DNA from: an uncultured Acidobacteriota bacterium
GTDB lineage: Bacteria > Acidobacteriota > UBA6911
Direction of reading: 5' to 3'
Length of the DNA stretch: 64,000 nt
Assembly: GCA_963827655.1 (NCBI GenBank)
Contig: CAWHCF010000045.1
Span: 56,830 to 120,829, forward strand
Shown here: positions 4,783 to 64,000 of the stretch, in pieces
Layout: each line of letters starts with the position of its first letter
How positions within the stretch are numbered: the first letter of the stretch is position 1
Notes under the pieces: generated by a model
Databases searched by the model: none
Told to the model about the DNA's origin: nothing
Seen by the model: only the letters and a program-made list of their open reading frames with translations
Translations under genes and position numbers: made by a program

Positions 4783-6069
4783 TCAGTCTTGGTGGTATTC
4801 GTTTCGCAGTGCGAATCTATAGTGACACCAGGAAAATCGAATCATTAGATGCGGGGGCTTGAATTCGACCACGGCTGAAACGGCTGGCCCTTCCACTCCG
4901 GCCAGGTTTCGGGTCCGCGCCTCGAACCGGTTTTCCCCGGTCTGGAGGGTCCAGCGAGTACGGTCGCCGGTAAAAGGTTCCCACGGGCCCCCGTTGACAC
5001 GGGAGAGATAGGTCTTGAAATTCGGCGTGGCGCTGCGAAGACGCACCTCGAGTTCCGCCGGCGCGATTTGCCGCGCTCGCAGATCCGGCACGCCCGGCGT
5101 CCACTCGATCTCGTGACGATTGCGTGTTGGGATAAAGGCGCTTGCGGCGTAGGCCCAGTGTTTGACGAGCTTGCCGCTGCCGCCCATGCGATACCAGGTC
5201 GTGTTCCGGAACGCGTCATTGTCTAAGATGAGCAGCCGGCTGCCTCCGCTCCAGTGTGGCTCCGTAAACGGATTGGGACGCAGATAATAGGATGCCCACC
5301 AGTAGCTGCGGATGGTGCCTTCCGGAGCGTCGGGTTTCTCCATAGTCGCCTGACGCCGGTCGATTCCCTGCATTTTCACAATCCCTTTTCCACCATCAGC
5401 CCGAACCGCCTCGTGGAGTTCCAGCGCCGAAAGCGGTATTCCATCCCGCTCGAAGTGGATATCGTATTTCGCGTCCAGCAGGACCCACTTCGCGTAGTCA
5501 TTCGACCAGACTTCGTTTACGCCGTGGTGGATACTGCGACCCATGTCCTCATGGTTCCGGTCTACGCCAAGGTCCCGAACGACGTAGCCCATCGAAACCA
5601 TCACGGCGTGCTGCACGGTCAGCGAATGCGAGCAGTGAAACCCGGCTCCGGTCTTTGCCTTCTCGAGGATGGCGAAGGCGTCCCCGCCCTCCTTCTGGTC
5701 GTTGTCGATCGGCCACCGGGTGTGTACCCAGTGCCGTAGCATCAACAACTTTCGGAACTCGTTTGGCTCGCCTGCGATGACTTTCTCAAGGCCATACTCG
5801 TCGCGAAGCCGCTTCAGGCGGGGATTGTGGTAATCCTCGATCGCGGCGAATACTTCCGGGGGGTAGAACCGCGGTCCGCTCACTGTCGCTCGCGCGATCG
5901 CCCCGGACGCTGATTCGATCTGCATCGGCCTTGGGTCCTGGGCCGGAGAATGTTTGGCAGTTTCGAAATATGGAAGTGGGGGCCTGGACGAGACGACCTT
6001 TACCGCGCCTGACATCGCGATGACGCACACCGCCGAAAGGGTTCCGGCAAAGAGCCACAAGCGCTTCAT
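4783..6069 (-). CDS. Secreted transglutaminase-like protein
   Basis: Signal peptide MKRLWLFAG; Cys (GFHCSH), His (HGVNEVW) and Asp (WVLLDA) triad pattern. Confidence 0.75.
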   Translation of the reverse strand: MKRLWLFAGTLSAVCVIAMSGAVKVVSSRPPLPYFETAKHSPAQDPRPMQIESASGAIARATVSGPRFYPPEVFAAIEDYHNPRLKRLRDEYGLEKVIAGEPNEFRKLLMLRHWVHTRWPIDNDQKEGGDAFAILEKAKTGAGFHCSHSLTVQHAVMVSMGYVVRDLGVDRNHEDMGRSIHHGVNEVWSNDYAKWVLLDAKYDIHFERDGIPLSALELHEAVRADGGKGIVKMQGIDRRQATMEKPDAPEGTIRSYWWASYYLRPNPFTEPHWSGGSRLLILDNDAFRNTTWYRMGGSGKLVKHWAYAASAFIPTRNRHEIEWTPGVPDLRARQIAPAELEVRLRSATPNFKTYLSRVNGGPWEPFTGDRTRWTLQTGENRFEARTRNLAGVEGPAVSAVVEFKPPHLMIRFSWCHYRFALRNEYHQD

Positions 6070-6882
6070 GTGTTTTGCACCTCTATCAAGAATGGGTAGG
6101 ACCGTGTGTTCTGGGTCAGACCAGCTCCGAGCAACTTCATATCGCACGGGTTTGTGCCACAAGCGACATTCGCACAGTAGTCCGGTAGCCTCGCGACGCC
6201 CGGGAATGATTTCGGTGTGGTCTGTGACGACAACGGTTATCCCTGCCTCCTGGTGAATAGATGAATGCATATTGTAACAGAGTTGACTGAGCGCGTCCGC
6301 TTTGAACACCCGCGCTATGACCATTCCAAGTTGGGTTAAAATACCACGTGACGAAGGAGACTGGCCAGCGCGTCAACGTCGCTACCAACTGCTTGCGCGA
6401 CTCAAAGAAGGCCGCGCGCCGAGGGCGAGATCCCAACGGCACACCCAGACACATCCGGGACACAAGGAGACTCGTGACACGCCGATTCCACGCCCCCGCA
6501 AAAGTATTTCGTGTATGATCGCACGGACGGTGCGGAGCCGGCGGAAACCGTTGATGGAGCAGCGGTGACCGGATTGGAATCGGCGATCTCCGCAAGACGC
6601 TTTGCGGCGTCGGGTTCAACCATAGCAACTCTTAGGGTTCGCGCAGAAATAAGTTCGTGGCCTGCGGGCCGCAGCCCGAAGGGGCGCGATCCTCAGCGTG
6701 CTTAGCGAACAGAAACCGGTTCAGGATTGACACCGACTCTCGCGCCAGAATGTGAAGTTATTTTTGCGCGAGCCCTTACCCTTGCAGGCTCCCAACGCGA
6801 GCACTCAGACTAACAAATCCACGATGTCGTGATTTCGAGATCCTGGTATTCATCAAAGCGGCGGAGAAGAGAGCGCGGCCCC

Positions 6883-8202
6883 ATGGCTATGTGCATGTTG
6901 GCGGTTGCTGCCCTCGCGATGGTCGCGGGTTCGGTCGTGGCCGAGGACTGGCCACGGTGGCGCGGCCCGCGTGGGGATGGAACCTGGAACGCCCCCAAAC
7001 TCCCCGAGAAGTGGCCGGTTAACGGACTGAAGGTTGCCTGGAAGCAGCCCGTCGGGGGTGGCTACGCCGGCATCATCGCGGCGCAGGGCCGCGTCTTCAC
7101 GCTCGACCTCGAAGCGGCGATTCCACCACGGCCAAAGGGTGCGATCGAGGACGGCAATCCCGATGGCACCGAGCGCGTGTTGTGCTTCGACGCGAAGACC
7201 GGCGAAGAACTCTGGAAGCACACTTACGCCGTGAAGTATCGAGATCTCGGCGGGTACGGGAACGGCCCACGCACAAGTCCCACCCTTCACGACGGCAGGG
7301 TCTACACGCTCGGTGCAGTCGGCCACCTTTTCTGCTTCGACGCGAAGACCGGCAAGATCATCTGGCAGCACGACACCGTCGCCGATTTCAAGGCCCAGGT
7401 GCCCGAGTGGGGCTTTGCCGGCTCACCGATCATCGAGGGCGAGAACGTCATCGTTCACATCGGCGCGAAGGACGGCGGGTGTGTAATCGCATTCGACCGC
7501 CTCACGGGCAAGGAACGGTGGCGTTCGCTGGACGACCCCGCAGGCTACTGCACGCCCGCGGTGTTCGACACGCCGGCGGGGCGTGTGATGGTATTGTGGA
7601 CTCCGAAACACATCCACGCTCTCGACCCAGCCAACGGCAAACCGCTCTGGAAGGTGCCCTACGAGGTGACGTACGGCGTCTCGATCGCGAGTCCGATTTA
7701 CCGCGACGGGATCGTCTTCGTCACGGGCTACTGGGAAGGCTCGAAGGCGATCAAACTTGGCGCGAAGCCGACCGACCACGAACTCATCTGGACGGATAAC
7801 AAGAACCTCCGCGGGCTCATGGCCCAGCCGCTCTACCGCGATGGCCACGCCTACTCGATCGACAAGAATCTTGGCCTGACGTGCTTCGAGCTGAAAACTG
7901 GCAGGAAGCTCTGGGACGACGACAACCAACTCACGCCGAAGGCCCGCAACCCGCACGCCAGCATCGTCTGGCTGAACGACGGTGACCGGGCGCTGTCGTT
8001 GAACAGCACAGGCGAACTTGTGCTGTGCCGGCTAAACCCCAGTGGGTATGACGAGCAATCCAGGACGAAGGTGTTATCGGGCCAGGTGTGGGGACATCCG
8101 GCGTTCGCCGGGCGGTTCATGTTCGCGAAGACGGACGGTGCGGAGGCATGGCGAAGGGCTGGTCAGAGCGAGTTGGTCTGCGTGGAGTTGGTAGAGAAGT
8201 AA
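6883..8202 (+). CDS. PQQ-binding-like beta-propeller repeat protein (Planctomycete type)
   Basis: EDWPRWRGPRGDG, GPRTSPT, repeated CFDAKTG.W motifs, WGHPAFA. Confidence 0.9.
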   Translation: MAMCMLAVAALAMVAGSVVAEDWPRWRGPRGDGTWNAPKLPEKWPVNGLKVAWKQPVGGGYAGIIAAQGRVFTLDLEAAIPPRPKGAIEDGNPDGTERVLCFDAKTGEELWKHTYAVKYRDLGGYGNGPRTSPTLHDGRVYTLGAVGHLFCFDAKTGKIIWQHDTVADFKAQVPEWGFAGSPIIEGENVIVHIGAKDGGCVIAFDRLTGKERWRSLDDPAGYCTPAVFDTPAGRVMVLWTPKHIHALDPANGKPLWKVPYEVTYGVSIASPIYRDGIVFVTGYWEGSKAIKLGAKPTDHELIWTDNKNLRGLMAQPLYRDGHAYSIDKNLGLTCFELKTGRKLWDDDNQLTPKARNPHASIVWLNDGDRALSLNSTGELVLCRLNPSGYDEQSRTKVLSGQVWGHPAFAGRFMFAKTDGAEAWRRAGQSELVCVELVEK

Positions 8203-16538: not shown

Positions 16539-16989
16539 GACAGGGCATCATAACAAGATCGCCAAATCCAAGAAATGGCCCGCAATTAGCAATTCCCCAT
16601 CGACACGCTCGACGTGCTACTCGCGCCAACGGACGAGGACGGGGACAATCGAGATTCGAGCCTGAAGGCAGAGGTGTGCCAAGATTTCTTGTCTCAGAGC
16701 ATCCGGTTGACCTAAGATGGCAGTCGCCGGCGCGGCCCGGGAACTTCCAGGGGCGTCGAGTTGACGTAAGCCCCATTCTCCGAACTTGACTGACCGCGCC
16801 TTGAGCTGAAAATGACTCTTTGTTCCGCCTGTCCGCAGAGCCGGGAAGAAAGACGAAGCAGGACGAAAGACACCCGACGATCGTCGAACCAAAAAAATAA
16901 AATTGAGCTGATGACGTATATTTGGCGGCTACACATTTGGTGTCGGCGGCGCGCTGCGGCGTTTGGGGGCCCGTCCCCGGAGACCAAGA

Positions 16990-28133: not shown

Positions 28134-28184
28134 TGGCGCCGATCGTTCGGGCCGGAGGTCTGCAATGCGAAAAGCTCCTTCTAC

Positions 28185-28430
28185 GGTGCTTCCGTCATCA
28201 ATTGTTGTCATGCCGCCAGAGGCATCCGCGTCTCATCGACAACGACCAAAACAGTCGATTGTCCGAACTTGACTTTCTCCGAAAACCAAAGAAGCATCGC
28301 CGACGGGAAGATCTCCCGTAACGTCAGCCGCCGCGTCGTCAGTCCAGCCTGGATCGCCGGCGTCCTCAATCTCGCGTCCGAACTTAAACGCCATATGAGG
28401 CGCTGACGCAAGTCCAGGTGATTTCGAGAC
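28185..28430 (-). mobile_element. 3' remnant of an IS1-like element with its terminal repeat
   Basis: RTPAIQAGLTTRRLTLREIF homologous to 90-406; terminus GGTGCTTCCGTCATCAATTGTTG at 28185. Confidence 0.65.
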
Positions 28431-28441
28431 ACTCCTGCCAT

Positions 28442-28606
28442 GGTGCTTCTGGCATCAATTGTTGGCAAGATTGGTATAAACCATTAGATTTCAAGTATAT
28501 TAAACCGGATTTGGGGCACTGCTTCTGGTTGGTTTCAAATCGGCGATAAGGTCCTTTGCCAGAAGGTCATAGAGGCTGATCACCAACAGTAGATGGCGGA
28601 AGCACC
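28442..28606. mobile_element. MITE (165 bp) with ~23 bp terminal inverted repeats
   Basis: GGTGCTTCTGGCATCAATTGTTG ... CAACAGTAGATGGCGGAAGCACC; AT-rich interior; no clear target duplication. Confidence 0.7.
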
Positions 28607-40435: not shown

Positions 40436-40678
40436 GCAGCGGGACGCTCGTCCTCTCACCCTGATGAACCGGTCTGAGTGACCGCCCGATCGCCGCCGTG
40501 GCGAAAGCCTGCAAAATTTCATCCCAGCCTAAAAGTTTTGGTCTATGATCGGCCAATCGGATGCCGCAGAACGGTCGGACCGGGCGCTCGAGTTGACATA
40601 ATGTCTGCCTTATCGGAAACTGGGCCGACCCCGCAACCGGGGGGCGCGAGGAAAACGGCTCTTGTTCGGCCTATCCGC
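40436..40678 (+). repeat. dif+oriIS-like unit, copy A; dif-like core 40591-40620
   Basis: AGTTGACATAA-TGTCTGCC-TTATCGGAAAC, then a GC hairpin and GAAAACGGCTCTTGTTCGGCCTATCCGC; nearly identical to 56962-57199. Confidence 0.9.
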
Positions 40679-42239: not shown

Positions 42240-42492
42240 GCTGACCGTGAAGTGAGCACATGACACGCATAGAGGTTGCCTACTTCTGGTAGGCTTTCGC
42301 CTTCCCGTCGGAGTTGCTGATGAGCATGGTCACGTGGCTGATCGTGGGCGTTGTCGTTGTCGTCCTGTATGTCTGGTAACATAAAGCCCCTTCTCAGAAC
42401 CTGAGACTCGAGCTGAAAATGACGCTTGTTTCCGCTTGTTTCTCTTATCCTCTTGCTAGAGGTGGAAGACAGAGTGGGTTAGCGCTTCAATC

Positions 42493-42658
42493 GGTGCTTC
42501 CGTCATCAAGTGTTGCTGGGATGGACTTAAAACTTTATGAGGCAGGATATTACAGACGAATTTGACTTCAGCAGTTCTAATCTGAGCTAAATCGGACATA
42601 AGTATCTTAGACACAATTAGATGGGACCGAGCCAGCAACAGTAGATTGCGGAAGCACC
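42493..42658. mobile_element. MITE (166 bp), same family as 28442-28606, followed by an extra terminal repeat (42659-42679)
   Basis: GGTGCTTCCGTCATCAAGTGTTGCTGG ... CCAGCAACAGTAGATTGCGGAAGCACC, then ACAATTGATGACGGAAGCACC. Confidence 0.72.
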
Positions 42659-42756
42659 ACAATTGATGACGGAAGCACCAGGATTGCGACAATTCGTCCT
42701 GGTCGCGTGGATGATGACGGCAAATTCGGAATTCGCCAGGGACAGGAAGTAAGCCG

Positions 42757-44578
42757 ATGCTTCGATCCGCGTTTCTGATCGCGACGATCCTGATTGTTCG
42801 CGCTCCTGCGGACGCACAGCCCGTCCGCATCACGCACGGTCCAATGCTGGGCCATGTAACGAGCAACGGCATTGCAATCTGGGCTCGCACCTCACGTCCG
42901 GGCGAGTTTCGTGTCCGTTACGGAATGACCGCGGAGCGGTTGGATCAAGTCACGACTCCGGTGTCTACGGCCCTGGATCGAGACAACACGGCATGGGTTA
43001 CGATCGCGGGTCTGCGGCCCGATACACGCTACCACTATCAGCCGGTCACAGTAAACGACGTTGGTCCCGCCGGCTCATTCACGACGCTGCCTTCGGCCGA
43101 CGAATATCGAGATCCGGTCACCAATCCTCGCGGGTTGTTCAACTTTCGTTTTCAGTTCGGCTCGTGCGCGAATCAGAAGCCGGGGAACGGCACCGGCCCC
43201 GGCTTGCCCGCTTATGGCACGATGCTCGAGCGCTTGCCGGGCAAGATCCTTTTTTCCGTCATGAACGGCGACTGGCTCTACGAAGACAAGCGCGAGTTTA
43301 CGGTGGATCAGTGGCGGGACCAGGTTGCGCTGAAGGGCGACGTGCCGCGCATTCTCCAGTTGGCGCCGTCGCTCGCGGGTGTCTGGGAAAACTATAAGTA
43401 CTTTCTGGAACGTGGCGCAAATTTGGCCGCGTGGCACCGAGTGATGCCCTCCTACTACACTCCGGACGATCACGAGATTCTGAACGATATCTACGGCACG
43501 GCCGAGGTGGGACGCCGCGACAGACGGACGGTTTTTCGCGACATCGGAATGCGCGCCTGGTTCGACTACCTGGCCGGCTCACAGCCTGTGCCGTATGCAC
43601 AGCCGGCTTATATGGGCGAGGCGACACTTACCGGCCGGGTCCGATGTCCTGGTGGACAAGTCGGCGAATTTCATGAAACTCGACCGGAAGCAGATCTCGA
43701 ACCTGCATGTGCACTGGGGAGGACAGTACGCCGGCGTCGACGAGGGTCGCTTTCCCGTCGGCAGCGGAGACCCGAACGCGGGCGTCTATGAGCTTGTTGA
43801 GGTAATGGACAACAACCGGCTGCGAATCCGTCCGGCCGCATCTGAGAGCCGCAGCTCTGTTTACTCCCTCGGCCGAATGTCGTTCTCGAGTTTCCGTGTC
43901 GGCAACGTGGAGTTCTTCCTCCTTGACACGCGCTCTCTTCGCGATCTGCAGGATACGAAGAACCCCAACAAGCCGGGCACGTCCCTGTTGGGACGCACAC
44001 AGCGCGAGTGGCTCATGAACTCGATGAAGAACAGCGACGCGGATTTCTTCTTCATCGCCTCTTCCGTCAACGTCACCGTGCCGCATGAGGGACCGCCGGG
44101 AGGCGGCCTGATCGAGAACAAGGACGACGCCTGGACGGCGTTCCTCGAAGAACGCGAAGCGATGATCCGGTTCTGGGACTCGCTCGGGAAGCCCGTCATG
44201 ATCATGACCGGCGACCTGCACAATAGCTGGGCCGTGCGCATCACGGACCGCGTCTGGGAATTTGCGTCGGGCCCACTGGGCTCACAGAATCATCCAGCCA
44301 AGAGCGAAGGAGGCCGGCCGCCCAACGGCGAGTTCGATTCACGCGGGCGCAAAGTGGACATCCGCTGGTCCAGCTACATCCGCGATGACATGCCCACCGC
44401 GCTTCGCAAGATTCCCTACTACGCAGTGGCTCAGATCAACAACGTGTTCGACAATCCGGCGGAACCGGGTAAGTCGCGCTGGGTGGCGTACCCACGGCTG
44501 CACGTCGTCATCCAGTATTACGACGGCCGAACGGGAGATCTTGTCTACGCCGAATCGGTCCACGCGGGGAAGCGCTGA
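42757..44578 (+). CDS. PhoD-like alkaline phosphatase / metallophosphatase; frameshift ~43630
   Basis: FGSC, NGDWLY, DDHE, LLDTR, TGDLH. Confidence 0.85.
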
Positions 44579-44640: not shown

Positions 44641-44898
44641 TCATCGGCCATCACCGACCAGCACGAATCCCGCCCAGTAGAACGGATGACTGGTCTCAGG
44701 ATTCTTCATCAGCTTCAAGGCCGCCCGTCGCAACGCTTCGGCCTTGGCCGCTCTCGTATTCTGGACGGCAAGCTGCGACTTGAGGTTGCCATGAAAGCCC
44801 ACCATCAAATCGCGTGTGCTGGCCGACTCAACCTTCCACTGACTAACCACAGTTGCCGGCACTCTGGCGACGAACAGTGCCCAGGTCAATCCAATCAT
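44641..44898 (-). pseudogene. C-terminal fragment of a CHAT-domain protein
   Basis: GLTWALF, VVSQWKV, HPFYWAGFVLVGD. Confidence 0.8.
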
Positions 44899-45097
44899 CT
44901 CTTGGCGCTCGGCGTGCCGTTCGGCAGCGCGGAGAACTGCCGCCTATCGCCCGATGCGGACGACAGGTAGGTTGTTGGCAGTCGCGTCGGATGACCGTCA
45001 TGGACGTTGAGGAGCACCGTGAGCCACACTGGCGCTCTCACGGGTCTGCGGTGGTACCGACGAGACCAATGCGGTGTCTGCGGAGTACAATGGATTT

Positions 45098-47712: not shown

Positions 47713-48010
47713 TTAGCTGCTTGTTCTCGCGGCGCAGCCGCTGCAGCTCCTGGCGCTCCGCCGTCTTGAGCTTGCCCTTGCTACCCCGGCCTTCGTCGAT
47801 CTCGGCCTGGCTGAGCCAATTGCGAACAGCTGACTCGGAAAGGTCGAGGTCACGCGCGATCTCCGCGACTGTCTTCCCGCTCTCGCGAATCAAACGCACC
47901 GGGTCTTGCTTGAATTCATCCGTGAATTTTCGCTTTTCGTTTCGTCATGGTTAGCCCCTCAAGGCATTATCCGCCTCATTGGGGGTGTCCACAAAACTGA
48001 GGAAGAGCAA
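47713..48010 (-). mobile_element. IS3-family left-end remnant (IRL plus OrfA, frameshifted)
   Basis: FTDEFK..VRLIRESGKTVAEIARDLDLSESAVRNW...ELQRLRRENKQL; IRL-like TGCTCTTCCTCAGTTTTGTGGACACCCC. Confidence 0.8.
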
Positions 48011-48019
48011 TGGAACCGG

Positions 48020-48200
48020 AGTCCTCGCCGCCATCCATCCACCGGATGCGATCCGGGCGATCCTCGAATGCCTCGGCCTGCCTTCGCGGGCAGCCGCCGA
48101 TTGCCAAGCCCTCACAGGACGGCCCCATCGGACTCTATCTATCAGTCCAGCCGCATTATCCGCGCGCCCGAAGGTTCGGCCTATGATTCGGCTTTTTCGT
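48020..48200 (+). mobile_element. IS91-family transposase C-terminal remnant and downstream region
   Basis: VLAAIHPPDAIRAILECLGLPSRA(PP), a typical IS91/ISCR transposase tail. Confidence 0.7.
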
Positions 48201-48456
48201 GAACGGTTGAAGCGGGCCGTGGATCCTTGACTGCCAGATCCAAAACCCGCCCGGTCGTTTATCACTCAACGAGTCCACCGAGGAGCCGGCGACCGGTAGG
48301 GTAGCATCGCCACCCTCGACGAGGTGATCGAATCGACAAGGGGTGGTAGCCGCGCGTCAGGCCGGGAGCCGGACGCGGCTGGCTCACCGATCTGGAAAAT
48401 CCATCGCTTGTTGGCGTCTCTGCGCATTTTTACCGGCCTAATGAGGTGCTTCGGTC

Positions 48457-48753
48457 CTACCACACCTTGCGGAGGTTCTGCAGGCCTTCAAGATAATCCT
48501 CTTTCTCGAAGTTGCTCTCGACACCGTAATCTGCTAGCAAGGTCACCATGCGGCCTATAGGAAGGCCTGCGATTTCAGCCGCCTTGCCCAGTGATGCTTC
48601 CCTTTTCCTGTACTTCTCCACCGCCAGCAGAACCCGGCCTCGGTGGACGAGTTCTCGCACAGCTTTGGAGAGGTCGCCCTTCTCTTCTCTAGAAAGCTTG
48701 GTAATGAAATCGTAGCTTTCCTTATCTATTCGAATGCTCATGGTCTTGGTCAT
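48457..48753 (-). CDS. UPF0175-like antitoxin
   Basis: SKAVRELV, ASLGKAAEIAGL; coupled to the PIN gene. Confidence 0.8.
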   Translation of the reverse strand: MTKTMSIRIDKESYDFITKLSREEKGDLSKAVRELVHRGRVLLAVEKYRKREASLGKAAEIAGLPIGRMVTLLADYGVESNFEKEDYLEGLQNLRKVW

Positions 48754-49254
48754 TTAATCTCCCTCTAGCCTGGATCGCGCATCAGCCACAATATCCGCTT
48801 TGTAGCGCCCGTACTGCTCAAGCGCGCCCAGCTTGGCAGTCGCAGTTTCCCGGTCGATCAGCCCCTTCTCGTGCATGCGCACCAGGATGGCCAGTGCCGT
48901 CGTGAAGGCAACCCTTAGCAGCTTGCAGGCATTGATACCGCTCTTGTCGTCAATCGCAACGAGCGTTGCCCGGCGCGCAATGGCTAGTGCAATCGCCTCA
49001 GCCTCTCCGAGGGCCAACGCGAAATCCCGCTGCAGCTGCGCGACCAGGTTCCTGTCCTTTATGGCTTTGACGGCAATCTTCTTCTCGCTGATGGCCCTCT
49101 GGATGATCAGGGCATCAAATGACTTCTTGACACGGCAGCTCTCGCGCTCAACCTCCTTGGGAATGACCACTTCCTGCGCAATCTGTTCTAGGAACTTCTC
49201 AAGAAGCTCCGCCTTTGCGAGCAGGATCAGGGTCGACGCATCCACCACCATCAT
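48754..49254 (-). CDS. PIN-domain (VapC/DUF3368-like) toxin
   Basis: VVDASTLI, LGEAEAIALA, IDD. Confidence 0.85.
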   Translation of the reverse strand: MMVVDASTLILLAKAELLEKFLEQIAQEVVIPKEVERESCRVKKSFDALIIQRAISEKKIAVKAIKDRNLVAQLQRDFALALGEAEAIALAIARRATLVAIDDKSGINACKLLRVAFTTALAILVRMHEKGLIDRETATAKLGALEQYGRYKADIVADARSRLEGD

Positions 49255-49315
49255 TATGACAGATTATTACATCCGTAAGGACTAAATCAAATACTGCGGT
49301 TGCCGATGTGTGTCG

Positions 49316-49365
49316 GGTCCTTCTGTCATCAATTGTTGGCAGGATTTAGTATAAAGATTTAGATG
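49316..49365. mobile_element. Single-ended remnant of the MITE family
   Basis: GGTCCTTCTGTCATCAATTGTTGGCAGGATTTAGTATAAA resembles the left end of 28442-28606. Confidence 0.55.
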
Positions 49366-49452
49366 CTTCTGTGCGGAAATGGACCGCATTACGCAGGCGT
49401 ACTTAACCTTCAGTTTTTGACAGTTTATGAAAGGTGCGTTATTATAGTCCAC

Positions 49453-49794
49453 ATGGGCATGACTTCACTGAACATATCCTTGCCTCAACCACTTAAGGAC
49501 TTCGTGGAAGAACGAGTCAAGGAGGGGGGCTACAGCACTCCCAGCGAATACGTCCGTGAGTTGCTCCGCGAAGACCAGAAACGCCGGATCGAGGAGAGAC
49601 TCGAAGCTCTCCTCCTGGAGGGCCTGAACTCAGGCAAGCCCATTGCCGTCACGCCGGAATATTGGGAAAAGAAACGCCAACAGCTCATTGAGCGGCACAA
49701 CGCGAAAAACAAGTCAGGCGGTGAGCGCTCGATACGTCGTTCTCCCGAAGGCCCACGGGGACCTGGACGACGCCGCAGATTACCTGGTAAATGA
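49453..49794 (+). CDS. parD: ParD-family (CC2985-like) antitoxin; 3' end may be extended by an indel
   Basis: LNISLPQPLKDFVEERV..GGYSTPSEYVRELLREDQ..LLLEGLNSG. Confidence 0.85.
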   Translation: MGMTSLNISLPQPLKDFVEERVKEGGYSTPSEYVRELLREDQKRRIEERLEALLLEGLNSGKPIAVTPEYWEKKRQQLIERHNAKNKSGGERSIRRSPEGPRGPGRRRRLPGK

Positions 49795-50053
49795 AGCTGG
49801 ACTGGACGTTGGTCTCGGTTTCCTCGCGGCGGCTCAAGAGACATTTGATCTTCTCGCCAGCCAACCTGCCATGGGGTGGCAGTGCCGGCTTAAAAATCCC
49901 GCTCTCGATTCCGTGCGAGTATTTCGCGTAACACGTTTCGAGAGATTTCTTATCTTCTACCGATCCGCACCCGAGTGCATTGAGATTCTGCGCGTTCTTC
50001 ACAGCTCTCAGGACCTGGACGCGCTCTTTGCGAAAGAAGGAGCCACGGATTAG
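49721..50053 (+). CDS. parE: ParE/RelE family toxin
   Basis: AHGDLDDAADYL, PAMG, FLIFYR, IEILRVLHSSQD. Confidence 0.85.
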   Translation: MSARYVVLPKAHGDLDDAADYLVNEAGLDVGLGFLAAAQETFDLLASQPAMGWQCRLKNPALDSVRVFRVTRFERFLIFYRSAPECIEILRVLHSSQDLDALFAKEGATD

Positions 50054-50230
50054 CTACTCGCAATACGTGTGTCGATAAACCCGCGAATCCCTGCAGTTAC
50101 GAGGCTGGTGACTGTTTTGTGGATTGGTCACCTCTCCTACCCCCTCCTCATAGGGTTCGGACTACACGGCGATACCTGTGGAATTGGATGTTCTCGAGTG
50201 CCCGCGCTGTCTTGGGCGCATGCGGATTCT

Positions 50231-50341
50231 GAACGGTCGGACCGGGCGCTCGAGTTGACATAATGTCTACCTTATCGGAAACTGGGCCGACCCCGCAGCC
50301 GGGGGGTCGCGAGGAAAACGGCTCTTGTTCAGCCTATCCGC
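50231..50341 (+). repeat. dif+oriIS-like unit, copy B; dif-like core 50253-50282
   Basis: AGTTGACATAA-TGTCTACC-TTATCGGAAAC ... CTCTTGTTCAGCCTATCCGC. Confidence 0.9.
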
Positions 50342-50367: not shown

Positions 50368-51762
50368 ATGAAGACGAAATCGCATCTCCGGCATTTCCTC
50401 GCGAAGGTCCTGTTCGTTGCGGCTTGGGCGGTCACACTATCGGCTGAGGCACTCACGCAGCGTCCGCCGCCGCACGTGTTCTTCCTGTTCGCCGATGACA
50501 TGCGCGCAGATTCCATCGGTGCGCTGGGCAACCAGGCGGTCAAGACGCCGAATCTCGATCGGTTGGTCAAAGAGGGATTCACTTTCACCAACGCCTACTG
50601 CCTGGGAGGGAACTCGCCGGCGGTGTGCACGCCCAGCCGCAATATGATGCTGAGCGGGAATGCTTATTTCCGCTGGAGCGATTATGTCTCGCCGATGGCG
50701 CCGAAGGCGAAGGGGATGCTTGCGCCGGGGGCGGCGCCGAATTTTCCGTTGTCGATGAAGGACCGGGGCTATGTGACGTATCATCACGGCAAGCGGGGGA
50801 ACACAGCGCTGGAGATCCAGGCGAAGTTCGACCACAACAAGTATCTCAAGAACGACGAGGGGGATCGACGTCGTGGCGAGCCGGGCAAGGAGATTGTCGA
50901 TGAGGCGATCGAGTTTCTGAAAACGCACCGGGGCGGACCGGTCTTCATGTATCTGGCCTTTGGGAATCCGCACGATCCGCGAGTGGCGGCACCCAAATAC
51001 ATGGAGCAGTACGACCCGGCGAAGCTTCCGCTGCCGAAGAATTATCTGCCGGTGCACCCATTCGACAACGGGGAGATGACGATTCGTGACGAGAAACTGC
51101 TGCCGTGGCCGCGGACCGAGGACGCGATTCGGAAAACGCTGCACGAATATTACGCGACGATCACGGGACTCGATGCGCAGATCGGGCGGCTGTTCAGTGC
51201 GATGGGAGAGAATGGATTCATGCAGAATTGCATCATCGTCTTTTCCGCGGACCAGGGCATCTCGGTGGGGAGTCATGGATTGTTGGGCAAGCAGAGCCTG
51301 TATGATGCGGCGATGAAGTCGCCGCTGGTGATTTCAGGTTACGATATCCCGCCAGGACGATCGGATGCGCTGGTCTATCTCCTCGATATCTATCCCACTA
51401 TTTGCGAGCTCACGGGAGCGAAGACCCCGACGGGCATCGATGGGCAGAGCTTCGTGCCGGTGCTGGAAGGGAAATCCGCGGCGGCACGGCCGGAGTTGTT
51501 TTTCAGCTACCGGGATGTGCAGCGAGGGCTTCGTGATGCGCGTTGGAAGATCATTCGCTATCCGCAGATCAACAAGACGCAGCTCTTCGATCTGGAGAGC
51601 GATCCGGACGAGATGAATGATCTGGCGAACGATCCGTCGCGGGCCTCGCGCATCGAGGAGATGTTCACACGATTGAAAGCGGCGCAGGAAAAGTATGGGG
51701 ATACATTGCCGCTGACTTCTTCGTCACCGAAACCCGCCGCCTGGACCCCTCCCTCCCAATGA
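50368..51762 (+). CDS. Sulfatase
   Basis: [29 protein letters not shown]. Confidence 0.92.
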
Positions 51763-52612
51763 AAACTTCGATCTACCTCGTCCTGTTTCTGTGTCTTGCG
51801 TTGAGTTCCCATGGGGAGACTGCGCGGCCCAACATTCTTTGGGTTTCCAGCGAGGATCACGGACCGCACATGGGTTGCTACGGGGACAGTTATGCGTCGA
51901 CGCCGAATGTGGATCGGCTGGCGGCGAAGGGGATGATCTACAAGCGTGTCTGGTCATGCGCGCCGGTATGCGCGCCGGCGCGGACGACGGTGATTTCGGG
52001 GATGTATCCGCCAAGCACGGGAAGCGAGCACATGCGGAGCCTGGTGGCGTATCCGGCGGGCAAGAAGATGTTCCCGCAGTTCCTGCGCGAAGCCGGCTAC
52101 TACTGCACGAACAACGTGAAAGAAGACTACAACCTCGACAAGCCGGGGCAGGTTTGGGACGAGTCGTCGAAGAATGCGCACTGGCGCAAGCGTGCGGCGG
52201 GGCAACCGTTCTTTGCGGTGTTCAACTCGACGAAGAGCCACGAGAGCCAGATTCGCACACGGCCGCACAAGGCGGTTCATGATCCGGCGAAGGTGCGGGT
52301 GCCGGCGTATCATCCGGACACTCCGGAGGCGCGGCAGGATTGGGCGCAGTATTACGACCAGGTGAGCGAAGCGGATGCGGACGCGGGGAAGGTGCTCGAG
52401 GAACTGGAGAAGGATGGGCTTGCGGAGGACACGATCGTCTTTTACTGGGCGGACCATGGTTCCGGGATGCCGCGGAACAAGCGGATGCTGAGCGACTCCG
52501 GGCTGCACGTCCCGATGGTGGTTTATTTTCCGGAGAAATGGCGCGGGCTCGCGCCGCCCGACTATCGCGCGGGCGGCAGTACGGATCGACTCGTGAGTTT
52601 TGTCGACTTCGC
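51759..52612 (+). pseudogene. Sulfatase, 3'-truncated at repeat copy F
   Basis: [19 protein letters not shown]; sulfatase-like sequence stops at LVSFVDFA, where the repeat begins. Confidence 0.85.
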
Positions 52613-52633
52613 GCTCTTGTTCAGCCTATCCGC
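52613..52633 (+). repeat. oriIS-like end only, copy F (21 bp)
   Basis: GCTCTTGTTCAGCCTATCCGC, identical to the ends of copies B and C. Confidence 0.85.
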
Positions 52634-53227
52634 TCTTGCCGTTGTGGCAGCCGTCGCAGCTTTGCATCGTCGGATTCCTCAGATCCGACAGCTTGGTCGC
52701 CTGCGGGACCTGGGCGTGACACTCGGTGCAGTCGGTCTCGGTCCTCGACTGCCGCGGGTCGGACGCGTGCGTCTCGTGCGCGAACATCTTGGAGACCGAC
52801 CACTGCGTCGCGGTCGGGCTCGACGCTCCGGCCCGTTCGCCCGGGCGATGGCAATCGCCGCACGAGCCCATCGACGGCGACGCGCTCCTGGCGTGGCAGG
52901 TCGAGCAGGTGGCGTGGCCGGAGCCGGGCGGCGGGGTTCCCTTGAACACGTCGCCGTGGCAGGACTTGCAGACGCCGTTGCGCCCGGGGCCCTTGCTCTT
53001 GACCGTCTTGAGGTGCGACTTGTGAGACATGTCGCCGCCGAACTCGCTGTCGGATCGGCGGCGCCGTCTGCTTGACGTTCGGGTCGGCGGCGTCATGGCA
53101 GACGACGCAGATCTTGGGCTTGGAGAAGAACTCGGAGGCGTGGCAGTCGGGCGTGTTGCACGGCTGGTGGTCCTTGCCCAGGGTCGGCGCCAGGACGTTG
53201 AACTGCTCGTCGAGCACGTGGCATTGC
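52634..53227 (-). pseudogene. Internal fragment of a multiheme cytochrome c (c3/c7-like), no start or native stop
   Basis: CVVCH, CKSCH, CSTCH, CGDCH, CTECH, CDGCH, CNTPDCH and a cut xQCH; one frameshift. Confidence 0.85.
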
Positions 53228-53269
53228 CCGGGGGGCGCGAGGAAAACGGCTCTTGTTCGGCCTATCCGC
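53228..53269 (+). repeat. oriIS-like end only, copy E (42 bp)
   Basis: CCGGGGGGCGCGAGGAAAACGGCTCTTGTTCGGCCTATCCGC, identical to the end of copy A. Confidence 0.88.
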
Positions 53270-55001: not shown

Positions 55002-55113
55002 AGGATTCTCAATCCAGCAAATTACAGCGTCCATCAACGAACAATACGCAACAGGGCGCTGAAAAGACGCATGCTGCAACCTTCTGTACAATGGGCCGCG
55101 CAGAGTTGGATGC

Positions 55114-55214
55114 CGGCCCGGGCGCTCGAGTTGACATAATGTCTGCCTTATCGGAAACTGGGCCGACCCGCAGCGGGGGGCGCGAGGAAAACGGCTCTTG
55201 TTCAGCCTATCCGC
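55114..55214 (+). repeat. dif+oriIS-like unit, copy C; dif-like core 55129-55158
   Basis: AGTTGACATAA-TGTCTGCC-TTATCGGAAAC ... CTCTTGTTCAGCCTATCCGC. Confidence 0.9.
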
Positions 55215-62005: not shown

Positions 62006-64000
62006 TCACCTCAGTTTTGAAAATAAAGGAGTTCTGTTTTCAGATGTCGGTATTCTCGGGTGTGCCTTGCGGGCACGGACTCGCTCGAAGAGCTCGCGAA
62101 CTTCAGCGCGGTCAAGATGGTGGCGTCGCAAAACCCAAGGTCCACGGCTCAGCGGGTGCAGTGCCTCGACCTTGCCGAGTTCAACGTACCGGCGAACGGT
62201 TAGGGGCGTGACGCCCAGATACGTCGCGGCCTCTCCGAGTTTCAACCATCCCTCCTCCTGCTGCCGGGCACGATCGTATACAGGGATCTGGTAGGACCGC
62301 CGCACGTCTTTCACTCTGGATCGCGTCCAGACGTGGCCCTTGGCCGTCTCCGACCCGCTTCGATTCATTGCCTGGGCAATGCGCTCGTCGGTGCACACTC
62401 GTGCAAGCACGCGAATCGCATCCACGGAATCAGGTGAGGTGGCCTGCAGGTGCTGGCCTCGGCGCCGCCGGGTCACGTGCACTTGTGTATGTACGCCCCC
62501 TTTCCAGTGGATCACCAACTCGATCACCGATCCTTGCGGAGAGAGGTCCACGATGATCTCCTCGATGAGCGTCCGGGCAATGCGCTTCTTGAGGCGTATG
62601 TTCGCCGGCTCCATGTTCCACACCCGGTCCAAGTCCTTACCCAAGGTGTGCAGAATCGCCGGGTCAGGCGGTCCGGATGTTGGGCGCCGAGACCTCTCTT
62701 CCTCGAGACGCTCCTGCAATCGGATCGTCTTCTCCAGGGCTTTGTTCCAACGCGACTCGAACTCCCCAGCCACCAATCGGTTCTCTGGGTCCACCGCGTC
62801 GTATTGTCGCCGCGCCCGTGCTGCTTCGAAGCGCGCGGCTTCGAGCTCCAACCGCAATGCTTCGAACTCCCCCTGCCACTCCTGACCCAGCTCCTCCGCA
62901 GCTCGGGCTGATGCCTCGATCGCGGCCGGGGCGATTACTCGTACGAGCTCGCGCGACGCGGCATCGTCGACGGCCGTCCCGCCGAATGCAATGCACGTCC
63001 CGGTTCCACTGTTCACCTGGGCTTGGTCGCACACATAGCGCACCAATCGAGGTGAGCCCGTATAGTTCACACGGAGTTTGCGCCCACAGCGTGCACACCG
63101 TAGTAGACCCGCCAGCAGGCCCTTGCCCTGCTTGGCGGCACCGGGTGAGCCTCCGCGTTGCATAGCATTCTTCGACAGCACGTCTTGGACCCGATCGAAG
63201 GTTGTCCGAGAAACATAACCTTCGTGATGATCATTGATCAAGACTTCGTATTCTCCTCGAGGCCTGCACCGCGTGGCCTTCCTCGGTATCCCGTCTTCGA
63301 CCTGCATGACGACGCGGCGCCTGCCGTAGGTGTAGGTCCCAGCGTACATCGGGTTCCTCAACATACGCACGATCATTCCGCTCGTCGGGTGTCGCCAGAC
63401 AGTTCGCCAGCGAATTCCGTCGTGGTACTGGACTGGAATATCCAACGCGTGCTCGAGAAACCACAAAGCGGCCTGCCGTGCCGAGCCGAGTTCCAGGGTC
63501 TTGTGAAACAGCAGCTCGATCGCATGTTGCACTCTCCGGTCAGGATCCTTCTCCAGAAGTCCGTCTTCCGTCTTGATGAAGCCGGGCGGCAGAGACATCA
63601 AAAGCTCCCCACGGCGCGCCTTGGCGCATCGAGCTTCTAACGCGCGATGCCGCAGTTGATCCAGCTCGTAGGCGCTGAGGTTGCCCTTCAGCCCCAGCAG
63701 CAGCCGATCGTTGCTGTTGCGCGGGTCGTAGACCGTCTCGTGGTCTATGAGCAGCGTATTCACGATCCCGCAGATCTCCACAAGCTGATACCACTCTCGA
63801 TTGTTCCGAGCAAACCGGGAAACCTCGCGAGCTGCCACAGCCCCCAACTCGCCCAGACTGACCCGCGTTAGCATGCGCTCAAATCCGGGACGCTGCGAGG
63901 TGCCGCTTGCGGTCCGACCCAGGTCGTCGTCGACGACCTCGACTTCGGACCACCCGAACTTACGTAACCGGTCCTTCATAGCATATTGGAGGCGACGGCT
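62006..64000 (-). CDS. Large serine recombinase (resolvase, recombinase, zinc ribbon, C-terminal HTH); 5' end outside the window
   Basis: DDDLGRTASG..RPGF, EVSRFARN, LAGLLRCARCG, YDAVDPENRLVA. Confidence 0.92.
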   Translation of the reverse strand, partial: SRRLQYAMKDRLRKFGWSEVEVVDDDLGRTASGTSQRPGFERMLTRVSLGELGAVAAREVSRFARNNREWYQLVEICGIVNTLLIDHETVYDPRNSNDRLLLGLKGNLSAYELDQLRHRALEARCAKARRGELLMSLPPGFIKTEDGLLEKDPDRRVQHAIELLFHKTLELGSARQAALWFLEHALDIPVQYHDGIRWRTVWRHPTSGMIVRMLRNPMYAGTYTYGRRRVVMQVEDGIPRKATRCRPRGEYEVLINDHHEGYVSRTTFDRVQDVLSKNAMQRGGSPGAAKQGKGLLAGLLRCARCGRKLRVNYTGSPRLVRYVCDQAQVNSGTGTCIAFGGTAVDDAASRELVRVIAPAAIEASARAAEELGQEWQGEFEALRLELEAARFEAARARRQYDAVDPENRLVAGEFESRWNKALEKTIRLQERLEEERSRRPTSGPPDPAILHTLGKDLDRVWNMEPANIRLKKRIARTLIEEIIVDLSPQGSVIELVIHWKGGVHTQVHVTRRRRGQHLQATSPDSVDAIRVLARVCTDERIAQAMNRSGSETAKGHVWTRSRVKDVRRSYQIPVYDRARQQEEGWLKLGEAATYLGVTPLTVRRYVELGKVEALHPLSRGPWVLRRHHLDRAEVRELFERVRARKAHPRIPTSENRTPLFSKLR

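Follow-up and report, generated by a model that had tools for sequence, protein, structure and literature searches.

What is the sequence that recurs, always in the same orientation, between gene-sized segments in this acidobacterial genome, and how did a truncated sulfatase gene and an internal piece of a cytochrome gene come to be bounded by its copies? The window, by which we mean the whole 64-kb stretch of DNA that was analysed, holds at least six good and two diverged copies of the repeat, all on the + strand, at a density of six to eight copies in 41 kb (Table 1). The good copies are shortened at their 5' ends to differing extents (243, ~238, 111, ~104, 42 and 21 nt), and we detected no homology among copies outside the repeat, upstream or downstream.

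Table 1. Features of the window, in window positions. R is the reference copy c40; E values of copies are from the profile built without R.
Feature	Position	Strand	Description
c16	16759..16836	+	diverged oriIS-tail copy, end GCCTGTCCGC; radical-SAM gene 126 nt downstream
c40	40436..40678	+	reference R, longest tail copy, 243 nt, non-coding, end GCCTATCCGC; E 2.3e-10
c42	42377..42431	+	partial, diverged, c16-type tail copy
Transposase relic	48000..48110	+	~residues 441-471 of the 489-aa P0277; tblastn 74% over 31 aa, E 3e-7
Transposase relic	50184..50231	+	DVLECPRCLGRMRIL, P0277 residues ~434-449; tblastn 75-87% over 16 aa
c50	50231..50341	+	tail copy R134-243; E 1.5e-9
Sulfatase gene 1, intact	50368..51762	+	Pfam Sulfatase and SGSH_C; NCBIfam arylsulfatase-like
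Sulfatase gene 2, cut	51759..52612	+	ends after codon 285 (FVDFA); ~200 C-terminal codons missing
c52 (earlier copy F)	52613..52633	+	21-nt remnant R223-243; exact 21-mer match, blastn
Multihaem cytochrome c fragment, internal	52634..53227	-	594 bp, residues ~66-264 of the 283-aa homologue P0125
c53 (earlier copy E)	53228..53269	+	42-nt remnant R202-243, identical to c40 sequence; E 5.4e-6
c53-c55 segment	53417..55012	-	zinc-ribbon membrane protein, putative anti-sigma factor, ECF sigma factor; Pfam, NCBIfam
c55	55111..55214	+	tail copy R~138-243; E 1.1e-9
Tannase/feruloyl-esterase gene	55231..56754	+	Pfam Tannase E 8e-120; starts 16 nt past c55 terminus
c57	56962..57199	+	long tail copy R1-238; terminus degenerate (..GGCCTAGCGCGG); E 7.6e-5
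Transposase relic	61856..62011	+	P0277 residues ~322-371; abuts 3' end of large serine recombinase gene
Large serine recombinase gene	62006-63979

The repeat is the oriIS tail of an IS91/ISCR-family element

Comparison with related elements identifies the repeat as the non-coding right end, the oriIS tail, of a rolling-circle insertion sequence of the IS91/ISCR family. A profile trained solely on 19 related tails, with R left out, found c40, c55 and c50 in the window (E 2e-10 to 2e-9), then c53 (5e-6) and c57 (8e-5), then c42 (0.005, covering profile positions 5-47) and c16 (0.009, the alignment reaching the profile end), and nothing beyond the listed copies, all on the + strand. The last 30 nt of R were matched at 19 or more positions in 18 loci, with the match ending 213-351 nt 3' of the transposase match; at least 450 nt of downstream sequence is available in 54 loci. 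Among 18,496 positions this makes 18 matches, whereas the 1,053,444 positions elsewhere yielded 23. The four best window matches to the terminal 30-mer of ISCR2 (plasmid locus L001), each 20/30, lie in exact register with the R ends, and R is 243 nt long compared with 232-235 nt for the tails of ISCR1 and ISCR2. Transposase codons immediately precede the copy c50, and a TTGACATAA...TTATCGG box of the tail is kept in related transposon tails, immediately 3' of the transposase genes. The ori-like character that the first-pass annotation had seen in these ends thus has a concrete basis: they are oriIS tails, with transposase relics nearby.

The copies support one another internally. The terminal 21-mer occurs five times in the window and never in 100 shuffles; the first 171 nt of c57 are identical to c40; and c16 aligns locally to R146-243 through the common terminus with a score of 32, against a shuffle maximum of 30. 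The tails nearest to R come from Acidobacteriota MAGs. An exact 20-mer of the R end had no match in a collection of one genome per species, apparently without this species, and R had no match among plasmid sequences. A protein-coding role for R is ruled out by stops in all frames. A structured RNA or riboswitch was likewise rejected: searching Rfam across all 64 kb gave nothing at the gathering threshold, near c40 nothing convincing appeared at E<=10, and the RNA fold was no better than that of shuffles. One further ori-like word, on the - strand at 60072-60101, matches ISCR1 and ISCR2 at 19/30 and was missed by the clade profile; we take it as chance.

Tail copies keep the exact terminus CCTATCCGC, with the exceptions of the degenerate c57 and the partial c42. 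The same word ends the relatives' own tails exactly in 9 of 18 cases, and by this comparison CCTATCCGC is the element's own conserved last word. It had been suggested that a shared (C)CGC marks a target preference at the ori end; these letters instead belong to the element's own terminus, and no word to the right of it is common to the window copies or to the relatives. IS91 proper needs CTTG or GTTC next to oriIS, a requirement defined for IS91, IS801 and IS1294 according to PMC13181058. Neither tetranucleotide adjoins any of the five exact termini in the window, where the bases are TTCG, CCTG, TCTT, ATAT and TCAT. The requirement is not established for ISCR elements. Members of the family have a terIS left end, lack terminal inverted repeats and target-site duplications, and are expected to move as a single-stranded circle with an ori-ter junction. 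The left part, including terIS, is missing from every window copy; in relatives, multi-copy genomes allowed the left ends to be located, and nothing in the window corresponds to them.

An intact transposase gene is absent from every tail copy, and no whole one lies within the window. What remains is three relics, on the same strand as the tails. The relic at 61856 scores 18.2 bits against Pfam Y2_Tnp, below the cut-off, and E 1.4e-9 against the NCBIfam ISCR_clade_Ia model; it matches plasmid ISCR/IS91 transposases by tblastn and is 76-85% identical to Y2_Tnp proteins. Downstream of the relic at 48000 (match 48000-48092) lie ori-like debris, near 48170-48230, and a GTTCGGCCTAT word. The relic at 50184 (tblastn E 4e-4 to 4e-3) abuts c50. 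The closest full-length relatives, P0277 and P0278, both combine Zn_Tnp_IS91 and Y2_Tnp domains. About 250 nt are missing from c50, from transposase codon ~449 to tail position 134; because of this internal loss, deletion is demonstrably at work in the array.

Genes cut between the tails

Cargo genes are cut at both kinds of junction, the fixed terminus and the variable short-tail end. Sulfatase gene 1, which starts 26 nt past the c50 terminus, is whole. Its neighbour stops at FVDFA where the next copy begins, as had been noticed from the sequence: translated from 51759, the ORF has ...RLVSFVDFA immediately before the 21-nt copy, whereas eight aligned homologues go on ...FVD(F/L/Y/C)APTxLSLAG(I/V) and then for some 200 further residues. 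The Pfam Sulfatase match reaches only position 292 of the 301-position profile, Pfam found no SGSH_C domain in this gene, and the 21-mer is not present at the matching site of the homologues.

The segment between c52 and c53 is an internal piece of a multihaem cytochrome gene with one CxxxxCH and six CxxCH motifs (CNTPDCH, CVVCH, CKSCH, CSTCH, CGDCH, CTECH and CDGCH), as the first-pass annotation had it. That account overlooked a frameshift near 53038-53048, which splits the motifs over two reading frames that align to P0125 residues 66-128 at 66% identity and 120-264 at 48%. Both ends of the gene are indeed lacking. It is cut about 19 codons short of its end, and c53 begins within a haem motif, so that the window reads ..GQCH where P0125 has CENCH; the fragment can serve no function. 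The description of this piece as very GC-rich holds in direction but not in degree: at 68.2% it lies above the window mean of 60.5%, only moderately so given that 3.4% of 594-nt windows are equally rich.

Neither other pieces of the cytochrome gene nor the missing sulfatase C-terminus occur elsewhere in the window. A search for intact donors, proposed earlier as a check, found none for sulfatase gene 2 or the cytochrome piece: the best sulfatase relative is 78% identical and verrucomicrobial-labelled, cytochrome relatives in a whole-library search reach 40-57%, and the closest full-length one is 48-66% identical, depending on the frame. The 2-3 bp microhomology proposed earlier for the variable end is therefore conjectural, deduced as it was from guessed donor sequences. 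The modest GC difference and the 78% identity to verrucomicrobial-labelled sulfatases would be compatible with a foreign origin of the cargo. In the c53-c55 segment, the putative anti-sigma factor has no family match and was assigned from its position beside the sigma gene.

Among 80 loci related to this one, taken with 4-kb flanks and including Acidobacteriota and Myxococcota assemblies, the arrangement recurs. A second direct tail copy, 21-302 nt long, lies 0.6-3.3 kb downstream in 13 of the 45 loci (~29%) that have at least 1 kb of downstream sequence. These second copies are mostly 100% identical; identity ends at the common terminus in 10 of the 13 (the others, L047, L070 and L075, are internal or diverged), and the 5' start lies 82-96 nt from the terminus in 7. 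A 21-nt remnant also occurs at L011, from an unrelated genome, where it lies beside a cut AsnB-like gene; at L051 a cut DUF499 gene adjoins the terminus. None of the relatives has a break point matching the -42 boundary of c53. The claim that capture ignores gene boundaries is largely right, with cut gene pieces between the ends here and likewise in L011 and L051. The variable end is, as these break points suggest, not purely random: the 21-nt remnant recurs in L011, and seven of 13 second copies start at 82-96 nt.

For 10 related loci we removed the second copy in silico, sought ORFs spanning the join, and ran Pfam on 16 flanking pieces. In the two informative loci, L011 and L051, the cut domain was not continued across the removed copy; in the remaining loci at least one side of the second copy had no Pfam family match. 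Nor was the missing part of DUF499 found on the left side of the L051 element. Removal of the copy restored no gene in either informative locus, and by these two cases simple insertion of a short tail into an intact gene is not the route.

Proposed one-ended transfer and its alternatives

Our main explanation, to which we assign a probability of roughly 0.58, is that the segments are units of arbitrary DNA plus tail plus terminus, piled up by IS91/ISCR one-ended transposition and later decayed. One-ended transposition with alternative or random termination sites is described for IS91 (PMC13181058, PMC5737581), and for ISCR28 a captured gene lying between two oriIS, a "sandwich", is reported (PMC12772301). 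A Y2 HUH transposase would nick at the oriIS terminus and peel the strand leftwards through the element; on failed termination, transfer would run into whatever DNA lies to the left, and the unit would therefore consist of arbitrary DNA, tail and terminus. Units that would fit this form are the two sulfatase genes with c52, the cytochrome piece with c53, the sigma/anti-sigma genes with c55, and the tannase gene with c57; each segment begins exactly at the terminus of the preceding copy. Transfers that start at one oriIS and stop, or whose units insert, at the next oriIS upstream would yield a head-to-tail pile. The fixed boundary would be the enzyme's cleavage site and could therefore fall within a gene, as in the cytochrome. 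The variable junctions (sulfatase codon 285 with tail -21, haem motif with tail -42) would have formed earlier, when termination or cleavage went astray within the tail or through ordinary deletion; later deletions may also be the source of shortened ends. Frameshifts and transposase relics would reflect decay of the array since then.

Several observations count against this explanation. The window has no intact transposase or terIS, and so no sign that the copies were active there; CTTG/GTTC is missing, the short remnants lack the box, c50 carries a deletion, and the -42 boundary is unmatched. Because c52 and c53 are without the TTGACATAA...TTATCGG box, it is unlikely, judged from the conservation of that box, that the 21- and 42-nt remnants are working origins, and they could hardly launch units of their own. 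The junctions had been called the clearest record of the mechanism, which is too strong where ordinary deletion also acts, as in c50.

Decay in place, without transport, is possible but doubtful. Successive full IS91-family insertions in the same orientation, one of them in the cytochrome gene, would have hit resident or once-acquired DNA, and illegitimate deletions would then have taken the body of each copy with neighbouring DNA, leaving 3' stumps. The region has decayed, as attested by the frameshifted cytochrome, the split PhoD, the CHAT-domain stump and the three small transposase relics, and both the internal loss of ~250 nt in c50 and a -42 boundary of c53 that is no recurrent break point in relatives fit this history. 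Deletions that removed a terminus would be invisible, so that the exclusive 5' shortening of the copies may partly be an ascertainment effect. Yet at least two independent deletions, both ending inside a tail, would be needed within 650 bp, together with a single orientation for all insertions; GC differs between the segments (0.60, 0.68, 0.56 and 0.625); and neither the 21-nt stump in L011 and the 82-96 nt starts in 7 of 13 second copies, nor the succession of element, cargo and shortened tail in 13 of 45 loci with mostly 100% identical copies, is explained.

The remaining alternatives are each very improbable. Gene segments separated by same-orientation repeats recall site-specific recombination, with the repeat as recombination site of integron-like attC cassettes or of tandem islands made by a tyrosine or serine recombinase; three genes begin 16-139 nt past a repeat end, there are toxin-antitoxin pairs, which chromosomal integrons also have, and a large serine recombinase gene lies in the window. 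We give this little credence: the scanned ORFs contain no tyrosine integrase, whether of integron type or other, folding gives no hairpin signal for the repeat (z +2.2 as RNA, +0.17 as DNA), Rfam has no match to it, it is specifically akin to IS91-family tails, and its conservation runs 14 nt beyond the sole GTT-core-like word. To our knowledge, serine recombinase sites leave no long direct repeats. An assembly artefact, in which short common words of 21 and 42 nt joined unrelated contigs and made the cut gene and the fragment chimeric, would suit two shortest copies near a small k-mer size and an intervening piece of different GC. Such misjoining is scarcely credible, given that the cargo/short-tail junctions must exist in some molecule on either path, that independent assemblies, including records titled whole chromosomes (the source of L016), show like architecture, and that the sulfatase homologues lack the 21-mer at that site. 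Equally hard to sustain is a duplicated promoter or leader region placed before several genes with no mobile element. R contains a TTGACA word, four copies precede + strand genes by 16-139 nt, and outward promoters are known in the ISCR1 tail (PMC6218425); a simple sigma-70 scan, however, found none in c50, no gene follows c52 or c53, and the conserved box belongs to related transposon tails. A promoter role is compatible with the transposon origin merely as a side effect.

Within the transposition framework, the oriIS-bounded segments might be true mobile cassettes, which we consider unlikely. A transposase supplied in trans would start at one oriIS and terminate at the next oriIS upstream, releasing circles of cargo plus short tail that could re-enter at any other oriIS; the recurrent break points (21 nt here and in L011, 82-96 nt in seven loci and in c55/c16) would then be secondary cleavage sites. 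If so, such arrays would be a rolling-circle counterpart of the integron, with arbitrary DNA in place of pre-formed cassettes, and the two-origin form (13 of 45 loci) would be general in an IS91 clade that is widespread in the environment.

Relation to known systems

The locus probably belongs to known phenomena, IS91 one-ended transposition and ISCR remnants, in an unusually dense array; our literature search found no description of this acidobacterial array. With IS91, IS801 and IS1294 it shares what appears to be a related transposase type (the relics match Y2_Tnp, and the closest full-length relatives have Zn_Tnp_IS91 and Y2_Tnp), two unlike ends, a conserved oriIS terminus some 200-350 nt past the gene, and the carriage of variable DNA from the other side on failed termination (PMC13181058, PMC5737581). 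It differs from them in termini without adjoining CTTG/GTTC, in the lack of an intact element, and in units that have lost the transposase and most of the tail. For ISCR1, the oriIS region is described as non-coding, ~232 nt long and sharply delimited on its 3' side, and the genes found first downstream fall into 93 groups (PMC6218425); the window likewise has a sharply bounded non-coding tail followed by diverse genes, a similar terminal word (GAAAA.GGC..TT.TTC..CCTAT.C), and a relic at 61856-62011 that fits the NCBIfam ISCR clade model. Enclosure of a captured gene by two successive oriIS is likewise reported for ISCR28 (PMC12772301). A difference from these ISCR elements is the host, probably an acidobacterium to judge by the ADOP permease and by the nearest tails. 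Where ISCR elements carry resistance genes, the cargo here is made up of metabolic genes and pieces of genes, and the window has six to eight tail copies in 41 kb with no whole transposase gene.

Integron cassette arrays also have same-orientation repeats between gene-sized segments, with genes soon after the repeat end, but the window has no integrase and no attC-like fold, its repeat is a transposon end, and its segments include fragments. Helitrons, the eukaryotic rolling-circle transposons, have one defined end, read through or misplace termination, and capture DNA without regard to exon or gene boundaries. The likeness is in mode of action only, and implies no membership: their protein family (Rep/helicase), termini and eukaryotic hosts are all different.

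An odd repeat thus gains a concrete identity, and with it a dense accumulation of derelict IS91-family right ends, interspersed with passenger DNA, is placed in an environmental, probably acidobacterial genome; work on IS91/ISCR elements has dealt almost solely with clinical bacteria, in which they carry resistance genes. The window and its relatives in Acidobacteriota and Myxococcota suggest that DNA carried between two origins is frequent in nature and is picked up regardless of genes. The related loci offer many natural examples for locating where rolling-circle transfer stops in the IS91 family.

No tRNA or tmRNA was found in the window, which rules out tRNA/tmRNA attachment-site repeats. 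The window further carries toxin-antitoxin pairs, a PhoD coding sequence split across two ORFs, a CHAT-domain stump in the same region, and an ADOP permease (870 bits).

The repeat as the tail of an IS91-family element

All copies of the repeat lie on the plus strand and share the 3' end ...GCCTATCCGC, with varying start points. The reference copy R is non-coding, all frames being interrupted by stops, has no Rfam match, and folds no better than shuffled sequence as RNA or DNA; no tRNA or tmRNA gene occurs in the window, and copies show no similarity to one another outside R, left or right.

A weak match to Pfam Y2_Tnp at 61625-61993 gave the first lead to its identity. The transposase relic in this region also matches NCBIfam ISCR_clade_Ia (E 1.4e-9) and, by tblastn, plasmid ISCR/IS91 transposases, and is 76-85% identical to Zn_Tnp_IS91 and Y2_Tnp proteins. 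In plasmid-borne ISCR2 (L001) the DNA 235 nt past the transposase stop ends ...GAAAAGGGCGTTTATTCTTCCTATACG(T), and three ISCR2 copies with unlike neighbours part ways exactly there; the ISCR1 terminus, ...GGTTTATACTTCCTATACCC, lies 232 nt past its gene. When the ISCR2 terminal 30-mer was slid over both window strands, the four best matches, at 20/30 (background mean 7.2, sd 2.3), were the ends of c40, c50, c53 and c55, exactly in register. Another word, at 60072-60101 (minus strand), scores 19/30 against the terminus of ISCR1 and likewise of ISCR2 and is missed by the clade profile, so is probably a chance match; the ORF around it (59788-61284) carries a HELGH motif and matches eCIS_core weakly.

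We compared 80 loci carrying relatives of the 489-aa full-length transposase P0277, with flanks to 4 kb, mostly labelled as Acidobacteriota/Terriglobia and Myxococcota assemblies; 54 had at least 450 nt downstream. In 18 loci the last 30 nt of R found a match of at least 19/30, whose end lay 213-351 nt past the transposase match (18 per 18,496 positions, vs 23 per 1,053,444 elsewhere), and exact CCTATCCGC ends 9 of these 18 tails. Nineteen aligned tails share a TTGACATAA...TTATCGG box and, after it, GAAAA.G.C.CTT.TTC..CCTAT.CGC as their last bases; the longer spacer of R is common to the acidobacterial tails L034, L007 and L048. Built without R, the profile of these tails finds c40, c55 and c50 (E 2e-10 to 2e-9), c53 (5e-6), c57 (8e-5) and two diverged copies, all on the plus strand, and nothing else in the window. 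Searches with the relatives' transposases (tblastn) added two plus-strand relics, one covering residues 441-471 and the other residues 434-449 (DVLECPRCLGRMRIL), the latter continuing directly into c50. R is thus the 3' tail of an IS91-family element and carries its oriIS.

The "ori-like ends" of the first-pass annotation are therefore borne out by the leave-R-out profile, the terminus register and the abutting relic; the (C)CGC that it read as a target preference is instead the element's own conserved terminal word. Bases to the right of the terminus (TTCG, CCTG, TCTT, ATAT, TCAT) have nothing in common, and the CTTG/GTTC required by IS91 proper, according to excerpts of PMC13181058, is absent there. 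The locus has the oriIS of the IS91/ISCR family, with the target tetranucleotide absent beside it, and of the transposase it has relics only.

The C-terminal relic at 48 kb (within 48000-48460) holds VLAAIH..., residues missing between the later relic and c50. Two short repeats link this spot with the 59-62 kb region (59421-59445, 61507-61528), as might be seen in an element copy that has been rearranged or permuted. A large XisF-like serine recombinase gene, with Resolvase, Recombinase and zinc-ribbon domains, touches the relic at 61856-62011 with its 3' end, and may be the edge of another integrated element running off the window.

Repeat copies, transposase relics and other features of the window
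Feature	Position	Strand	Remarks
c40	40436-40678	+	243 nt; reference R
c57	56962-57199	+	R1-238; degenerate terminus
c50	50231-50341	+	111 nt
c55	~55111-55214	+	~104 nt
c53	53228-53269	+	42 nt
c52	52613-52633	+	21 nt
c42	42377-42431	+	diverged tail copy; profile without R, E 0.005
c16	16759-16836	+	diverged tail copy; profile without R, E 0.009
Transposase relic	48000-48092	+	residues 441-471
Transposase relic	50184-50231	+	residues 434-449
Intact sulfatase	50368-51762		SGSH_C (Pfam)
Cut sulfatase	from 51759		runs into c52
Cytochrome piece	52634-53227	-	594 nt
PhoD-like phosphatase	42757-44578		overlapping ORFs 42757-43791 (N-terminal domains), 43595-44578 (rest)
CHAT stump	44644-44943	-	last 93 profile positions only
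Asparagine-synthase-like gene	58249-59334	+	partial
Serine recombinase	62006-63979	-	XisF-like
GGTGCTTCCGTCATCAATTGTTG repeats	28168-28210, 28425-28467, 42476-42518, 42640-42690, 49299-49341		fourth copy inverted

Genes cut at repeat copies

The sulfatase ORF reads ...RLVSFVDFA and then enters the 21-mer GCTCTTGTTCAGCCTATCCGC of c52. Eight homologues of 389-498 aa, with 62-70% identity across the aligned part, have FVD(F/L/Y/C)APTxLSLAG(I/V) here, followed by about 200 further residues. The Pfam Sulfatase profile is matched only to position 292 of 301, the Pfam search found no SGSH_C domain on the C-terminal side, as the intact neighbour has, and the missing part was not found elsewhere within the window. 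Translated in the sulfatase frame, c52 gives LLFSLSA vs (V/L)LSLAG in homologues, a likeness that is probably coincidence. The best sulfatase matches are 78% identical and labelled Chthoniobacteraceae or Verrucomicrobiota.

Directly after c52 lies a piece of a multihaem cytochrome c, in two frames separated by a frameshift near 53038-53048: one reads QCHVLDEQ...CNTPDCH...CVVCH, the other contains CKSCH, CSTCH, CGDCH, CTECH and CDGCHNGK. The haem motifs had been counted correctly at first pass, but the frameshift was missed. The frames align with residues 66-128 (66% identity) and 120-264 (48%) of a 283-aa homologue (P0125), relative to which the piece falls short by about 65 residues at the N-terminus and 19 at the C-terminus; neither missing end of the gene was found anywhere else in the window. 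The piece stops within a CxxCH motif (GQCH vs CENCH in P0125), and c53 starts at this break. Its GC content is 68.2%, vs 60.5% for the window, and 3.4% of 594-nt windows are equally rich. The microhomologies proposed for these junctions (GC at the sulfatase, CC(G) at the haem motif) would fit the protein sequences of the homologues; overlaps of 2-3 bp are often expected by chance.

Second tails in related loci

Comparing each of the 80 loci with itself gave 22 pairs of direct repeats, 13 of which, by position, are the element's own tail again, 0.6-3.3 kb downstream; the two-tail form thus occurs in 13 of the 45 loci with at least 1 kb downstream, the choice of pairs and their start points being our judgement from the self-comparison. 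These second copies measure 21-24, 62, 72, 82, 91, 92, 96, 96, 172, 230, 239, 241 and 302 nt. In identical pairs identity runs to the terminus, and the flanks are unlike. In seven second copies (L008, L051, L016, L023, L047, L075, L077) the start lies 82-96 nt from the terminus, and five share the same starting word, L008 and L051 coming from one assembly and so not independent; c55 and c16 begin at the equivalent place.

The second copy in L011 is 21 nt, the length of c52, and is preceded by an AsnB-like gene cut within its amidotransferase domain. In L051 the second copy's terminus adjoins a cut DUF499 gene, whose match breaks off at position 155 of the 1024 in the profile. In both loci the rest of the gene is absent beyond the second copy, and in L051 also left of the element. 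Gene pieces between two origins are therefore not unique to the window, and the claim that capture ignores gene boundaries holds. The L011 fragment (5948-7210, minus strand) has a possibly coincidental counterpart in the partial asparagine-synthase-like gene right of the window's array, the loci being unrelated.

In L016 (7970-7990) the 9-nt terminus CCTATCCGC stands once more in tandem after the second tail copy, as if from two rounds of cleavage and joining at one site. In one Acidobacteriota assembly (L076 6624-6868, minus strand; L048 5440-5684) one element type's tail lies inverted just past both tail copies of another type, so that different members of the family leave tails at the same places.

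Probable transport, decay and setting

According to excerpts of PMC13181058 and PMC5737581, the IS91 transposase initiates at oriIS and terminates at terIS, 1-10% of events fail to terminate and carry a variable length of adjacent DNA, and the inserted form is a bottom-strand single-stranded circle. With the tails on the plus strand, transfer would run leftward and the DNA left of each tail would be its passenger. Each segment begins exactly at the preceding copy's terminus and finishes with its own shortened tail. This pattern agrees with units that left from between two origins, or went in at one, and in this way built up head to tail; excerpts of PMC12772301 report a similar "sandwich", with two oriIS, for ISCR28. 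The proposed mechanism does not account for how a cut gene was first joined to a shortened tail.

We favour transported units with later decay, at a probability of roughly 0.58, and the recurrent break points argue for enzyme action. That insertions and deletions in place produced the array is a distinctly less probable reading; c50 has lost about 250 nt internally, between transposase codon ~449 and R134, so plain deletion has also been at work. Site-specific recombination, assembly error and a mere promoter repeat share the small remainder.

The locus works like IS91/ISCR-family elements and derives from them. Its closest parallel is ISCR1, for which excerpts of PMC6218425 describe a 232-bp oriIS region with a sharp boundary, beyond which 93 different groups of genes occur. 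New are the setting and density: 6-8 tail copies and 3 transposase relics share one strand within 46 kb of what is probably an acidobacterial genome, and the cargo consists of metabolic genes and one gene fragment that is dead. How often environmental relatives show the two-origin form is, to our knowledge, likewise new. The literature searched, which covers ISCR reviews incompletely, yielded no account of arrays of this kind for these phyla.

The split PhoD-like gene is probably a frameshifted pseudogene within the array; the CHAT protease stump is followed by small DUF4160, DUF2442 and DUF6429 ORFs. That the host is probably acidobacterial is judged from an ADOP permease (870 bits) and OMP_b-brl_4 receptors encoded in the window. 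Just left of c50 (48457-50053) are two toxin-antitoxin pairs, one on the minus strand (UPF0175 and a PIN-like ORF) and one on the plus strand (a ParD-like ORF and ParE). A second repeat family, with core GGTGCTTCCGTCATCAATTGTTG, adjoins small ORFs and also lies immediately upstream of the ParD/ParE pair; at 42.5-42.7 kb a pair of opposed copies, separated by about 130 nt, resembles an operator or a miniature inverted-repeat element.
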